3,634 bases of DNA from a phage (PZ049718.1); one strand, 5' to 3'; positions 1 to 3,634 are shown, counted from the stretch's first letter. Numbers and translations: made by a program. Notes: generated from the letters alone by a model not told the origin.

Positions 1-1015
1 CCGCAGTGGCGGGAATGCGCCCGAGGCGTACCGTTCCCCTGCCCTCTCGCGCATTAATTTGATCGACCACGGCCATCAGTCGATCGGCACCTAGGCGCGG
101 GGCGGCGGCGAACAGGTCACCAGTGAATTCGCCTCGCTGCCGCAGATCCATCAGCAGCACCTCGGCTTTGCTGTAGGCGTAGCCATGCCGGTAGATCGCT
201 TCAAGCCCGCGCACGGCTGCAGCGGCGAGCACGCGAGTGTCGTCGGTCGGGTACGGCAGAGGGCAGCTGATGGCGTTCGCGTATCGCGGCTGGTTGGGGT
301 TGTGCATGCCGGTACGGATGGCAACCTGCAGCGCGCCGGCCAGACTTTGCTGGGAGCGCAGCTTCTCGGCGGCCTTGGTAACGTAGGCCACGACCGCCTC
401 GCGGATCGGTGCGATGTCGCGCAGGCGGCTGCCAAACATTTTCGAGGAGCAGATCATCTGCCGGGGCGGTACCGCCTCCTCCAGCTCAAGGCAGGAGATT
501 CCATGCAGCTCGCGGGCGGTTTTCTCCAGCACCACGCTGAATTGCTTTCGCAGCGATGCGGAATCGTACTGCGCTAGGTCCCAGGCGGTCTGGATGCCCA
601 GCGGGCGCAGGCGGGTAGTCAGGCGCCGGCCGACGCCCCACACTTCGCTCACCTCGGTCATCTTCAGCAGCCGGTCGCGTCGCTCCGGGTCGCTTAGGTC
701 GATCACACCGCCGGATTTGCGCCAGGTCTTGGCTGCCCAGTTGGCGAGCTTAGCCAAGGTCTTCGTTGGCCCGATGCCCACGCCAACCGGTATGCCGGTC
801 CACCGCAGCACACGCTCACGCGTCTCATACCCTAGCGGCACCAGGTCGCCGGTTATCCCCGTCAGGTCGGCAAACGCCTCGTCGATGCTGTACACCTCGA
901 TTCGCAGGGAACATTCCCTCGATGACGTCGTCATCACCCTGGCGCTCATGTGTCCGTTTATGTGTAATAGAAAGTCAATAAGAACCGGGCCATGCTCGCC
1001 CTTGGAGCTTCTCAT
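1..1015 (-). CDS. umuC: Y-family translesion DNA polymerase, UmuC/RulB family (Pol V catalytic subunit), 5'-truncated remnant. Recognisable homology covers about 2-955; the N-terminal ~85 aa are replaced by unrelated sequence; the 3' end continues past position 1. Probably a disrupted, non-functional gene.
   Basis: Minus-strand translation reads ...HMSARVMTTSSRECSLRIEVYSIDEAFADLTGITGDLVPLGYETRERVLRWTGIPVGVGIGPTKTLAKLANWAAKTWRKSGGVIDLSDPERRDRLLKMTEVSEVWGVGRRLTTRLRPLGIQTAWDLAQYDSASLRKQFSVVLEKTARELHGISCLELEEAVPPRQMICSSKMFGSRLRDIAPIREAVVAYVTKAAEKLRSQQSLAGALQVAIRTGMHNPNQPRYANAISCPLPYPTDDTRVLAAAAVRGLEAIYRHGYAYSKAEVLLMDLRQRGEFTGDLFAAAPRLGADRLMAVVDQINAREGRGTVRLGRIPATA and continues off the edge. It matches E. 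coli UmuC motifs recalled from memory: YSIDEAF (active-site Asp-Glu), the GIxxTKTLAKLAN helix-hairpin-helix, VWGIGRR, and the C-terminal LNAKEGRGT. It is absent from the ORF track because its stop lies beyond the left edge. The same frame has an in-frame stop at 1070-1072 and a first in-frame ATG at 1013-1015, but UmuC similarity begins only near 955. The symbol is used in the family sense; rulB, mucB or impB cannot be told apart from sequence alone. Confidence 0.85.
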   Translation of the reverse strand, partial: MRSSKGEHGPVLIDFLLHINGHMSARVMTTSSRECSLRIEVYSIDEAFADLTGITGDLVPLGYETRERVLRWTGIPVGVGIGPTKTLAKLANWAAKTWRKSGGVIDLSDPERRDRLLKMTEVSEVWGVGRRLTTRLRPLGIQTAWDLAQYDSASLRKQFSVVLEKTARELHGISCLELEEAVPPRQMICSSKMFGSRLRDIAPIREAVVAYVTKAAEKLRSQQSLAGALQVAIRTGMHNPNQPRYANAISCPLPYPTDDTRVLAAAAVRGLEAIYRHGYAYSKAEVLLMDLRQRGEFTGDLFAAAPRLGADRLMAVVDQINAREGRGTVRLGRIPATA

Positions 1016-1464
1016 ACCCAACCGGTATGGCTGTAGCTTCTGAGGAGATCGCCGTCGCTCACCGGATCATCCGGTCATCCTGTTAGTAACCGGTCAAAGC
1101 TGATCTGTTACATCGAAGGCGGACACCTGTCCATCGACAACACCCCTGCCGAGCGGTGAACCGCCCTCCCATGTACATATGACCAAAACGTCGCCGTTAT
1201 CCTACCGTTCTGTCATGCCTACCCACGACGGAGTATTGACGGTCTCCGTCCTATAACATAGCTTTTCCGAAAGGCGCTCAAGTACATATCGTCATGTGCA
1301 TACGAGCCTCGTGTCGTTAAAAGAAATGGTTGGTGCCGCATGAAAGTGCTCTTCATGATGCCGTTCGGCGTGTCGAGCTTCTCCGCCCCCATCAAGATCA
1401 AGGCTTCGTCTTGGTGTTAGTGCCAGATGCACGTCACCTTGCGGTGCAGGAATGGAGTGTGAAC

Positions 1465-1827
1465 ATGAAAGCAGAAACGGAATCGCGGATTTTTTCGGTG
1501 GACGAATATGTCCGTCCGTCTAACGGCGAACCGATCCGTTCAGTTGTTCTGGAGACCAACGATTCTGTCGTTGTAGTTTGGCACGCCTACCCTAGGCAGG
1601 AAATAGCTGCCCATGTCCATCCTCACGGCCAAGATACTTGGACGGTTATCTCAGGTGAGGCCAAGTATTATCAAGGCAACGGCGTAGAAATTCATCTTAA
1701 AGCTGGAGATATTGCCATTGCAAAACCTGGGCAAGTACATGGTGCCGTGAACTCTGGTCCAGGACCTTTCATATTTGTCTCCGTGGTTGCGCCGGGCAGT
1801 GCAGGTTTTGCGTTATCTGAGAAATAG
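1465..1827 (+). CDS. Cupin-domain protein (cupin_2-type small beta-barrel, probable metal-binding), 120 aa
   Basis: This is the in-frame inner start of track ORF 1330..1827. The ATG at 1465 is preceded by GGAG at 1454-1457 (7 nt spacing); the longer upstream extension has no ribosome-binding site. Translation MKAETESRIF...AAHVHPHGQDTWTVISGEAKYY...KAGDIAIAKPGQVHGAVNSG carries both classical cupin motifs: HxH(x)3-4[E/Q/D](x)6G as H50-V-H52...G64, and G(x)5-6PG(x)2H(x)3N as G81...P88-G89-QV-H92-GAV-N96. Confidence 0.8.
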   Translation: MKAETESRIFSVDEYVRPSNGEPIRSVVLETNDSVVVVWHAYPRQEIAAHVHPHGQDTWTVISGEAKYYQGNGVEIHLKAGDIAIAKPGQVHGAVNSGPGPFIFVSVVAPGSAGFALSEK

Positions 1828-1850
1828 GCGAAAGGCCTGAGAGGAACCTG

Positions 1851-2414
1851 ATGAATACACGAGTATTTACGTTCGCTGGTGGAGAAACGGGGGTTTGGCG
1901 CGTTGTTGCGATGAATGCCGTGGCAGGAGCCCCTCTCCCTGGAATCCCACGGCTCAACGTAGCCGCTGGCTCTGTTTCGCCGCAGCCTCCGGGCACCAAA
2001 TGGCTCCTTCGCGGGATAACGAGTAACGAGCGCTATGTCGTGCGTGAAGAGAAGGATCGTCTCGTGGCGAAGCAGCCAAGCTTGGGTCGAGCAGAGGCTA
2101 CCTGCGCCGCCCTGATCCCTATCCGGAAAAACCCCTCATGGTGGGGACTGTCTCAAGACGAACGCCGGAAGATTTTTGAGGAACAGTCCCGTCACATTCA
2201 CATCGGGCTCCAATATCTCCCTGCTGTGGCCCGCCGCCTCCACCATTGTCGGGACCTGGGCGAGAACGAACCCTTCGACTTCTTGACTTGGTTCGAATAT
2301 TCCCCGTCTGATGAGACGGCCTTTAACAGGCTTCTGGCCGAACTCCGAGCCTCGGTGGAGTGGCAGTATGTCGACAGAGAAATCGACATCCGGCTAGTGC
2401 ATGAGCCGGCCTAG
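1851..2414 (+). CDS. cld: Chlorite dismutase family protein, short clade-2 (Nitrobacter/Klebsiella-type) Cld-like haem enzyme, 187 aa; probable chlorite O2-lyase
   Basis: Track ORF 1851..2414. The ATG is preceded by AGAGGA at 1841-1846 and lies 23 bp after the cupin stop, so the two genes are probably co-transcribed. Translation contains hallmarks recalled for the Cld family: LIPIRK followed by the adjacent Trp pair W97-W98, then SRHIHIGLQYLPAVARRL with a candidate proximal His115 (2193-2195) and distal Arg128 (2232-2234) 13 residues apart, the same spacing as the His/Arg pairs in characterised Clds, followed by FDFLTWFEY. Length and lack of a signal peptide fit the short cytoplasmic clade-2 enzymes. 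The family call rests on memory of motifs, not a search. Confidence 0.75.
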   Translation: MNTRVFTFAGGETGVWRVVAMNAVAGAPLPGIPRLNVAAGSVSPQPPGTKWLLRGITSNERYVVREEKDRLVAKQPSLGRAEATCAALIPIRKNPSWWGLSQDERRKIFEEQSRHIHIGLQYLPAVARRLHHCRDLGENEPFDFLTWFEYSPSDETAFNRLLAELRASVEWQYVDREIDIRLVHEPA

Positions 2415-2558
2415 CATCAGGTTTAACTTCGATCTACGTGCGGCACACTCCTGCGACACCCGCAGCCCAGCAAAACCCCGAAAAATCTAGTGTGTCGCAT
2501 AACTTAGGAGTAACGCGACAGGTATGTCTAGCGAGCCACTAGTCGCTTAAGAACTTTT

Positions 2559-3634
2559 CTACTTATAGCCTCCTCTTTCTCTCATCGATCTCCTCGGCAT
2601 CCTGCCGTCTAGAGCCGGCACATTGTCCAGCTTTCGAATGAGGCTCTCCAGCTTTTCCAAGTCGCCCTCGGCAATGGCTCGCTCGTCGGGAGTTAAAGGC
2701 ACGGCCTCCAAGTACCGTCCGATAGACGATTTGCTTTCCAATGCTTGGGCCCTTGCGCTGGCTTTCGGCAAGTTGAAGTCACACCCCGCACAGGCCATGC
2801 GATGTGGGCAGCTGCTCCAGAAGGGATTTGAACAATACGAGTCGCCCAAGTCATAGAAGGTGTAGGGGGCATCTGAATGGCGAACAATTACGTCATGATC
2901 GATCAAAACGGAGACCATATGGGCCATTTGATCGGCTTTAACGAAGGATGCTGCCAGCTTGGTAGGCCGAATTCGAATGTAATGCAAAGTCGAATTCGGC
3001 GAGCTATGTCCCGACCACTGCATTAGCTCGATCAGCGACATGCCCTGAGGGACGCTGGCGAGCGCCGTCACTGCGGAGGCACGTCCCCGGTGGCTGGTGA
3101 TTCGCCCGCGACTGTCCTCCAGTGGCACACCCGCCTTGGCGCATAGCATTGGAATGATGGTGCCATTAATGACACTGGAGCCTATGCGCTTGCCTCGAAA
3201 CTGAAATAGGTAGCTAACTTTTTCCCCGGTTCGCTCATCCAGCAAAGCGGCCTGGTTAGCAGGCCTGTCCTCCAGCCAGGCGTCAATGCGCTCCTTCACG
3301 ACCACCGCTACAGGTTTGACGAAAGCTTTGAACGTCTTGCTGGCAGGAATATCGAGATAGCATAAAGTTTTTGCTGGAACGATGGTCCCATCCTCGTGTA
3401 CCACATCATTGGTCTGAGGATGCGCGCATCTTTTATCCAAGCGCATGATTTCATTGCTGCGCAAACCAGCGTGCGTCCACACTACAGCAATGGCTTGAAC
3501 CATCGACAGCGGATAGTGAATCTCCGAAAGCAGATCACTACGCTCAAGATTTAGACTCGCCCAAATCAGCTTGAGCCAGGTCGAGTCATCAATTACCCGC
3601 GGGTTGATACCCGAGTTGAATGTCACGGATCGCG
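2559..3634 (-). CDS. Tyrosine-type site-specific recombinase/integrase, partial (N-terminal core-binding domain lies beyond the right edge), with a ~139 aa extension after the catalytic Tyr
   Basis: Track ORF 2559..3626. The listed start is a GTG and the frame stays open to the window edge, so the gene is 5'-partial. The catalytic signature is complete: Arg-I in VWTHAGLRSNEIMRLD (R56), HxxR in SHRGRAS (H179, R182), the second His/Trp in QWSGHSS (H207) and the nucleophilic Tyr in TLHYIRI (Y216, plus-strand 2979-2981). Only ~50 aa precede Arg-I within the window, consistent with a missing N-terminal domain. Stop codon TAG at 2559-2561. Confidence 0.9.
   Translation of the reverse strand, partial: RSVTFNSGINPRVIDDSTWLKLIWASLNLERSDLLSEIHYPLSMVQAIAVVWTHAGLRSNEIMRLDKRCAHPQTNDVVHEDGTIVPAKTLCYLDIPASKTFKAFVKPVAVVVKERIDAWLEDRPANQAALLDERTGEKVSYLFQFRGKRIGSSVINGTIIPMLCAKAGVPLEDSRGRITSHRGRASAVTALASVPQGMSLIELMQWSGHSSPNSTLHYIRIRPTKLAASFVKADQMAHMVSVLIDHDVIVRHSDAPYTFYDLGDSYCSNPFWSSCPHRMACAGCDFNLPKASARAQALESKSSIGRYLEAVPLTPDERAIAEGDLEKLESLIRKLDNVPALDGRMPRRSMRERGGYK

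Follow-up and report, generated by a model that had tools for sequence, protein, structure and literature searches.

The 3,634-nucleotide stretch of phage record PZ049718.1 (hereafter the window) raises the question of how the 3′ part of umuC/rulB, which encodes a subunit of DNA polymerase V, came to lie beside genes for a cupin, a chlorite dismutase (Cld) and a tyrosine recombinase. The first-pass annotation, made from the sequence alone, had read this arrangement as an integrase-bearing, integron-like element (ILE) with variable cargo in a umuC/rulB hotspot, and translation and Pfam searches recovered the truncated umuC, the leader of lower G+C content, the cupin gene, the Cld gene and the recombinase gene where it had placed them (Table 1). 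We conclude that the window very probably shows one end, on the cargo side, of a site-specific integrative element of 4,844 bp that is a member of the rulB/umuC ILE family and, within it, of the two-recombinase lineage first described with effector cargo. The cargo proteins are already characterised, and the element extends known biology rather than presenting a surprise.

A discrete 4,844-bp unit at one codon of umuC

The minus strand of positions 1-956 (window 2-949) is free of stops and frameshifts and corresponds to ~317 residues from the C-terminal part of a Y-family polymerase of the UmuC/RulB type, with Pfam matches to IMS (profile positions 75-146), IMS_HHH, IMS_C and DUF4113. The first base of this fragment is the third base of the Tyr codon within an SSNYxLY-GD motif, and the translation then opens at G-H-M-S-A-R-V-M...IEVYSIDEAF, which indicates that roughly 85 N-terminal residues are missing. 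G+C content is 65.3% in positions 1-956 and 53.9% in positions 957-3634. In a megablast search of plasmids, the segment 955/957-3634 matched 11 plasmids of Pseudomonas, Stutzerimonas and related Pseudomonadaceae at 100% identity, and similarity to those 11 plasmids stopped sharply to the left of 955-957. The left 954 nt of the window returned just two partial plasmid matches, at 85% identity, and reached at best 93-99% identity over short stretches of the loci that we fetched for comparison (given by L numbers).

The records NZ_CP029096 (L001) and NZ_CP071948 (L002), in which the surroundings are unrelated, have exactly 4,844 bp in common at 100% identity, with fixed ends that read TTTATGTGTAATAG... 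and ...CCACCTAACTTAAT. The window carries the cargo-side end of this unit, from 957 to the window end; what lies beyond is the rest of the large recombinase gene (intL), a second recombinase gene (intS, 339 aa) and 60 bp of end sequence, and in all full copies examined the other end is 2,166 bp past position 3634. Copies of the element at 100% identity, drawn from plasmids, chromosomes and species-representative genomes, were bordered by 23 different sequences on the left and 13 on the right, which indicates that the boundary is more than a chance shift in composition. The junction fell at the same nucleotide in 21 of the 23 left flanks, which read in umuC sense ...GCG CTG T | A | Y GGC GAC ATG..., with the middle base of the Tyr codon as the sole ambiguous base. 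The element start that had been proposed at 956 is within one base of this junction, as the T at 957 is common to target and element.

The identical copies also supplied the second junction and the umuC 5′ fragment that an insertion into umuC had been expected to leave, with the umuC 3′ piece at the cargo side and the 5′ piece at the recombinase side. In L001, the umuC-sense translation after the recombinase end reads ...NDGCIIARSREAKALGLKMGDPYFKVKRFLDQRGVTAFSSNYALY and then ends at a stop codon that belongs to the element. A tblastn search with RulB of pWW0 placed residues 9-85 beside the recombinase end in L008, L011, L013, L014 and L015 and residues 62-~400 (62-397 in the alignment to the fragment equivalent to that of the window) beside the cargo end in every locus. 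In loci with a second element upstream, only RulB residues 41-85 were found at the recombinase side. To represent the empty site, we used a 642-nt query made of the L001 left flank, one T and the right flank. This query was uninterrupted and 642/642 identical in four P. aeruginosa megaplasmids, and it was covered to at least 80% in one piece in 64 records. The unoccupied umuC site is therefore on record, and the uninterrupted match indicates that insertion adds 4,843 bp with neither loss nor duplication of the target. The restored umuC sequence is predicted to read ...GCGCTGTAYGGCGAC.... The empty site is the strongest in-silico evidence that the element moves as a whole unit, and at the level of sequence comparison these results show a discrete unit with fixed ends that occupies the same nucleotide in many divergent umuC alleles.

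Hosts of the element include P. aeruginosa PA7 (island RGP63), S. stutzeri, S. chloritidismutans, P. mendocina, P. pseudonitroreducens, Atopomonas and P. abietaniphila, the last of which has several copies. The presence of a 100%-identical element in at least 23 umuC alleles is a sign that the element has moved recently or still moves. In P. abietaniphila and P. pseudonitroreducens (L021, L023, L031, L032, L033), several umuC alleles terminate at the distal end of the element, and two contigs (L022, 4,848 bp; L034, 4,854 bp) consist of the element assembled on its own with a consensus flank of 3-7 nt. Together, these observations indicate that one genome holds several copies, each in a different umuC paralogue. 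In several P. aeruginosa assemblies (L038, L039, L043, L044 and L047 1-7000), the occupied umuDC operon adjoins a BREX defence cluster (BrxA/B/C, BrxR, methylase), as would be expected if a larger island included this umuDC.

Table 1. Coordinates of the features in the 3,634-nt window
Feature	Position	Strand	Basis or remark
umuC/rulB 3′ part (Y-family polymerase V subunit)	1..956	-	Translation, Pfam; open at left window edge
Fusion reading frame start, ATG 1015-1013 within element	947..1015	-	In frame into umuC 3′ fragment (MRSSKGEHGPVLIDFLLHIN-GHMSARVM...)
Crossover nucleotide T (A in umuC sense, middle Tyr-codon base)	957..957		Common to target and element
Non-coding leader of cargo module	957..1464	+	508 bp, 52.6% G+C; no open reading frame with a family match
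Distal arm of putative core site, TTATGTGTAAT	958..968	+	End comparison in L001, L018, L049
Cupin gene, 120 aa, WP_071534424	1465..1827	+	Pfam Cupin_2, E 2e-13
Chlorite dismutase gene (Cld), 187 aa, PaCld, WP_026084028	1851..2414	+	Pfam Chlor_dismutase; dimeric lineage-2 Cld
Inverted-repeat site TGTCGCAT-N12-ACGCGACA	2493..2520		Spacer between Cld and recombinase gene
intL, 3′ 1,076 bp (C-terminal 358 of 721 aa)	2559..3634	-	Stop 2559-2561; gene runs past right window edge

Kinship with effector-type ILEs and competing explanations

The first-pass annotation had recognised a single recombinase; the element encodes two tyrosine recombinases, IntS (339 aa, XerC/D-like) and IntL (721 aa), the genes of which overlap by 4 nt. 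In L001, the full intL gene is at 13605-15770 and intS starts 60 bp from the element end (16786 to 16846). IntL has a Pfam match to the generic Phage_integrase family, and its catalytic residues are R422 (3459-3461), H545/R548, H573 and Y582 (2979-2981). The R, HxxR, H and Y residues are present in both proteins and are invariant in IntL among 24 homologues, so that both recombinases look catalytically complete. IntL further contains a Cys/His cluster from C631 to C648 (2781-2834), in which C631, C639, H641, C645 and C648 are invariant in the 24-sequence alignment and which is a probable zinc module. At E<=1e-20, the protein database contained 181 clusters of IntL homologues, all generically named, from Pseudomonas, Enterobacterales, sphingomonads, Falsirhodobacter, Methylomonas and others. 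The Pfam and NCBIfam searches returned no family that ties IntL to more than the generic Phage_integrase domain, and comparison of the IntL sequence with those of solved structures returned nothing relevant.

A tblastn search with IntL identified an 81%-identical protein on plasmid pPP1-1 of P. syringae pv. pisi (NZ_CP034079), on which the counterpart of IntS is 83% identical. The annotation of pPP1-1 lists rulA and an 82-aa rulB′, then a 336-aa integrase that starts after a further 61 bp and a 713-aa recombinase; a type III effector encoded on the other strand and the remainder of rulB complete the locus. This element is 4,245 bp long compared with 4,844 bp, splits rulB at the same codon and has the same gene order, in which intS and intL are followed by convergent cargo. 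Its junctions, GCGTTGT|AGTAAGTTAAGTGGAATGC... and ...CCACATAAA|TGGCGAC, correspond to those of L001, GCGCTAT|ATTAAGTTAGGTGGAATGC... and ...CACATAAA|CGCCGAC, and the two elements have the termini A(T/G)TAAGTTANGTGGAATGC ... CACATAAA in common. In the account of Arnold et al. (2001) that PMC4542609 gives, avrPpiA1 is part of a 4.3-kb insert in rulB, and according to the summary of Jackson et al. (2011) in the same source the first integrase of effector ('T3SE') ILEs is ~60 bp from the end of truncated rulB′. The corresponding distance is 60 bp in L001 and 60-61 bp in pPP1-1.

Based on the match to pPP1-1 in recombinase identity, junctions and spacing, we assign the element of the window to the effector-type ILE lineage, with different cargo. 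The effector ILE of P. syringae carries a type III effector, whereas the window element carries a cupin and an active Cld, and no type III effector or avirulence gene is among its cargo; effector cargo is a trait of the first examples and not of the mechanism. The hosts also differ: chromosomes, islands and megaplasmids of P. aeruginosa, Stutzerimonas and further pseudomonads that are not plant pathogens carry the window element. Effector ILEs are described with one integrase in the published summaries, as far as PMC4542609 reproduces them, whereas the window-type element encodes two. Thus, the family assignment in the first-pass annotation stood with the number of recombinases amended, and the comparison of recombinase and junctions with published rulB elements that it had proposed gave a match in pPP1-1.

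The tandem of a small and a large recombinase is also a feature of another group of elements. The Tn554 family has small and large tandem tyrosine recombinases together with TnpC, prefers one site (att554/radC) and does not duplicate its target. By description, which is the only level at which the two were compared, the window element resembles this family in its 339-aa and 721-aa recombinases with overlapping genes, its asymmetric ends, its insertion in both orientations, its minimal homology between element junction and target and the absence of a target duplication; it differs in its proteobacterial hosts, in its umuC target and in having no third, TnpC-like gene. A distant link to the TnpC of Tn554 has been described for GinD (PMC5385486), the product of a fourth gene of the GInt elements considered below. 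However, IntL has no Pfam or NCBIfam link beyond its generic domain, and the ten commonest genera in the tblastn matches, outside of which were 27 rarer ones, include neither a staphylococcal nor another Firmicute genus. We consider it unlikely that the element is a Tn554-like site-specific transposon rather than an effector-type ILE.

We also weighed membership in the three-recombinase type, which comprises the FH-type ILEs and the GInts. ILE-FH1, ILE-FH4 and ILE-FH5 have an operon of three tyrosine recombinase genes with a small, tetR-like gene as the fourth, enter rulB at a GAT (codon 41) 123 bp into the gene, leave 118-119 nt before xerD and have been shown experimentally to move (Rhodes 2014, PMC4542609); GInts have the same architecture, with ginD as the fourth gene (Bardaji et al. 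2017, PMC5385486). The window element is like them in its split rulB/umuC target, conserved recombinase end, lack of obvious terminal repeats, variable cargo that begins immediately behind the last conserved gene, and far end that is short and little conserved. In contrast, it has two recombinases and no fourth gene, carries its cargo directly after the intL stop, sits at codon ~85, spaces its first recombinase by 60 nt and is known from sequence alone. Furthermore, blastp of IntL against the FH/GInt-type proteins of 538, 617, 576 and 679 aa returned no match, and profile comparison of the large recombinases of the two types with hhalign gave E values of 0.31 and 0.21. It is therefore very unlikely that the window element belongs to the three-recombinase type, and the ILE reading of the first-pass annotation holds for the effector-type lineage but not for the ILE mobilised by Rhodes (2014), which uses another umuC site.

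The two types do meet in the same gene, and FH/GInt-type elements were present in the umuC genes of L001, L005 and L042. The same umuC is often doubly occupied, by the three-recombinase type at codon ~41 and the two-recombinase type at codon ~85, as in L001 (16847-17000 and beyond), L004, L005 (13165-23203), L006, L007, L009, L010 and L042. The upstream element sits at the NDGC codon and often carries mer genes or the sulP-usp-dksA-sdiA set of ILE-FH1. UmuC residues 41-85 alone remain between the paired elements, which are neighbours but distinct units, with a junction for each. Two unrelated recombinase systems thus use different codons of one gene.

A true integron, or a cupin-Cld cassette mobilised by an insertion sequence (IS), would account for the weak match of IntS to the integron-integrase model TIGR02249, for the IS26 copies that bracket cupin-Cld in Enterobacterales and for the short repeats around extra cargo in one variant (L006). 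However, that match reached 65 bits where the cut-off is 265, and IntS scored higher with the XerD and XerC models, yet below their own cut-offs; moreover, no attC-like repeat was found in the window, and the 4,844 bp contain no transposase or IS. The enterobacterial copy corresponds to window 1085-2650 at 91% identity, runs from the leader through the cupin and Cld genes to include 90 nt from the end of intL, and occurs in about 500 plasmids of Klebsiella, Escherichia and Enterobacter between copies of IS26 (L016 6001-7465). This copy, which is the context of KpCld and of the cupin PDB 3H8U, lacks the recombinases and the umuC junctions and is a truncated relic of a related element, so that IS26 flanks a truncated fragment only. 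We regard an integron or IS origin of the window element as highly improbable.

That there is no mobile element at all, and that the window is plasmid backbone with a decayed umuC or the remnant of a prophage-type integrase, is hardly credible: the window alone shows a single junction and umuC pseudogenes are common on plasmids, but identical ends occur in 23 umuC alleles, the empty site is exact, the umuC 3′ fragment reads through without stop or frameshift, the element is not accompanied by phage genes, and the window contains no tRNA gene, which also disposes of the phage integrase with a tRNA attachment site that had been raised as an alternative. A scan of the window against Rfam gave no match at E<=1.

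Ends of the element and a proposed mechanism

Joining the ends of the window-type element yields ATTCCACCTAA-CTTAATT-TTATGTGTAAT, in which 11-bp inverted arms that match at 9/11 positions flank a 7-bp spacer. The arms of pPP1-1 match at 10/11 positions, and the terminus CACATAAA is conserved in relatives. This layout is that of a tyrosine-recombinase core site, and we infer that the joined ends serve as one. In every junction seen, the break coincides with the boundary of the distal arm, and element and target have only one base in common. A repeat search of 940-3634 returned short, chance-like pairs only and no family of arm-type repeats. We set aside a near-palindrome in umuC, CGCTGTACGGCG, as a recombinase core, as its centre is the canonical junction and not the midpoint between the orientation-specific junctions.

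We propose that IntS and IntL act jointly on the core site of the circularised element, which would recombine with the conserved umuC sequence GCGCTGT-A-YGGCGAC. Exchange would be fixed at the distal-arm boundary and would require essentially no homology in the spacer. In umuC sense, the order after insertion is umuD, umuC codons 1 to ~85, the 60-bp end that carries the ATTCCACCTAA arm, intS, intL and the spacer, followed by Cld and cupin on the opposite strand, the leader, the 11-bp distal arm and the rest of umuC. The usual orientation would thus place intS-intL behind the LexA-controlled umuDC promoter, in which case DNA damage would switch on the recombinases. In four simple insertions, LexA boxes (CTGT-N8-ACAG) were located 32-33 nt upstream of umuD. 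Insertions in the usual orientation have a TAA or TAG supplied by the element directly after the cut Tyr codon, and an AGGGGG motif in the 60-bp end precedes the intS ATG as a putative Shine-Dalgarno sequence. The stop, this motif and the LexA boxes support the idea that the recombinases are expressed by read-through from the SOS promoter, which would match the proposal of Jackson et al. as Rhodes (2014, PMC4542609) quotes it.

With the insertion, UmuC loses its N-terminal ~85 residues, which probably inactivates polymerase V. The umuC 3′ fragment is extended in frame by an ATG within the element (Table 1); the RefSeq equivalent of this fusion, which starts 61 nt inside the element, is named 'DUF4113 domain-containing protein'. 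The fusion product would be without the N-terminal part of the catalytic domain, which suggests that polymerase V function is probably lost.

A few insertions are reversed (L002 12001/16844, L019 3585/8428 and L036 ~5983), with the junction 5 nt further downstream in umuC (TAC CAA T|CG CTC). Such junctions would fit two exchange points a few bp apart in a quasi-symmetric target. The reversed examples involve a divergent 'YQS' allele on a plasmid backbone of P. aeruginosa and S. stutzeri and a relative in Pantoea, and in L026 (9131) the distal end meets the same 'YQS' allele in the opposite sense.

Several results weigh against our reading of the window and of the mechanism. The reversed insertions in L002/L019, L036 and L037 cannot use the umuDC promoter, so that coupling to the SOS response is not obligatory. 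The attP arms have little similarity to the umuC target (attB), and the right junction of the window itself is taken from identical copies. The circular junction predicted from the ends, ...CATTCCACCTAACTTAAT(T)TTATGTGTAATAG..., was absent from JGI metagenome contigs and from all fetched loci. The AlphaFold model of IntL is moderately confident (mean pLDDT 69), and a Foldseek search of the PDB with this model returned the lambda integrase core as its best match (E 0.14), with none significant. For the cargo, a scan of 900-2700 gave no sigma-70 consensus and no promoter-like site.

Cargo, relatives and the wider family

The Cld encoded in the window is identical over 187/187 aa to PDB 9GTJ, the P. 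aeruginosa Cld, which was solved at 0.99 A and is an active dimeric enzyme (PMC12525007), and the cupin matches PDB 3H8U with an E value of 3e-70. Both genes are on the + strand and intL is on the - strand, a convergent arrangement as in effector-type ILEs. This cupin subfamily is the closest genetic partner of Cld across 1,487 genomes (Barnum & Coates 2022, PMC9751292). Table 1 of the same paper lists WP_011914410 (XerD family), WP_011914409 (integrase), cupin, a DUF4113 polymerase and umuD among the genes linked to Cld. WP_011914409 and WP_011914410 are the very proteins annotated in L001, which indicates that the association of Cld with integrases was already on record. Barnum & Coates (2022) did not read the arrangement as an ILE in umuC; the first-pass annotation was thus only partly right that cupin and Cld had not been described as cargo, as the link of Cld, cupin and exactly these integrases had been tabulated, but the cupin-Cld pair is new as ILE cargo as such.

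We propose that the cargo is expressed from its own leader and probably makes the host less vulnerable to chlorite or to reactive chlorine species of a related kind. In the enterobacterial copy, 1085-1464 of the leader is 91% conserved. Two palindromic GTACAT-type motifs (CCCATGTACATATG at 1168-1181 and CAAGTACATAT at 1279-1289) are 109 nt apart in the leader, upstream of the cupin gene, and could be operator sites. A terminator scan of 900-2700 gave nothing beyond the expectation from shuffled sequence. In an exact look-up of IntL, 10/10 contexts carried cupin-Cld.

Related recombinases were accompanied by other cargo. The relatives comprise pUM505 (L004), with a 1,680-aa AAA protein and a 474-aa protein; pPniHBP1_1 (L005), with DUF5677 and others; a 7,355-bp variant in P. 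aeruginosa (L006), with added MFS, TetR and DUF6118 genes; a contig from a Logan sequencing run (L049), with a metallophosphatase and a 684-aa protein; and Pseudomonas sp. R76 (L050), in which the element lies inside an ICE (integrative and conjugative element) and carries CdiB/CdiA. A group with 58-61% identity includes an Enterobacter IncFIB plasmid (L035), with Ni/Co efflux genes and the canonical junction, and a Pantoea plasmid (L036), with a crcB-eno-gpmA cluster. All seven adjoin umuD/umuC. With the type III effector of pPP1-1, the CdiBA, metallophosphatase-containing, DUF5677 and AAA cargos show the same recombinases with different cargo at the same umuC position, for which the first-pass annotation had proposed a survey.

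In L006, 2.5 kb of extra DNA (10660-13166) lies between Cld and intL, at a breakpoint that is equivalent to window 2509|2510, and is bounded by 15-bp repeats, TGTCGCG(TTAC/AAAT)TCCT. The window has a single copy of this repeat, inside the inverted-repeat site at 2493-2520, the 17-nt pattern of which is unique in the window and was matched in 0/200 shuffles. The site may be either a cargo-capture site or a deletion scar. A scan of metagenomes for cargo variants at this internal site gave 0 matches, and GATTTTGCTGTT was found again downstream of intL in L050.

More broadly, we tentatively suggest a large, so far undefined family of IntS/IntL elements in umuC, with crossover at a fixed boundary, hijacking of the SOS promoter and swapping of cargo downstream of intL, a wider reading that is possible but doubtful. 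Such a family would span Gamma- and Alphaproteobacteria and reside on chromosomes, ICEs and IncF plasmids and megaplasmids. Its target would be one conserved umuC Tyr codon, with a few reversed insertions 5 nt off and a third site in distant relatives. Crossover without spacer homology would suggest a single defined strand exchange that is resolved by replication, the LexA-controlled umuDC promoter would couple recombination to DNA damage, and cargo would be exchanged at a hotspot just downstream of intL. The known cargos are effectors, contact-dependent inhibition (CDI) toxins, resistance to Ni/Co and fluoride, a metallophosphatase-containing pair and chlorite detoxification. A literature search for a described two-recombinase umuC element returned nothing beyond the ILE papers.

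The element explains a truncated umuC beside an odd gene set in clinical Pseudomonas genomes, and the effector-type ILE lineage reaches well past plant pathogens. Its spread in P. aeruginosa megaplasmids, RGP63, Stutzerimonas and, in decayed form, ~500 enterobacterial plasmids fits selection by chlorine-based oxidants, which Barnum & Coates (PMC9751292) argued from co-occurrence alone. For such elements, the umuDC promoter would offer a built-in SOS switch. Current understanding is not overturned, and the family-level picture, with its fixed codon, both orientations, co-occupancy with GInts and wide range of cargo and hosts, may merit dedicated study.

Two further loci touch on the extent of the family. 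In the pPATH plasmids of Pantoea agglomerans (PMC10425158), fragments of UmuC beside XerC/XerD, an MFS transporter and an epoxide hydrolase were reported as 'unique' genes and left uninterpreted, and this gene set looks like another member of the same element family. On an IncFIB/FII plasmid of K. pneumoniae (L037 5900-6010), a recombinase pair that is 34% identical to IntL adjoins umuC at a third position (…EAK|ALGIKMG, about codon 50), and its recombinase-side arm, TTATTTGGAAT, resembles TTAGGTGGAAT of the window element.

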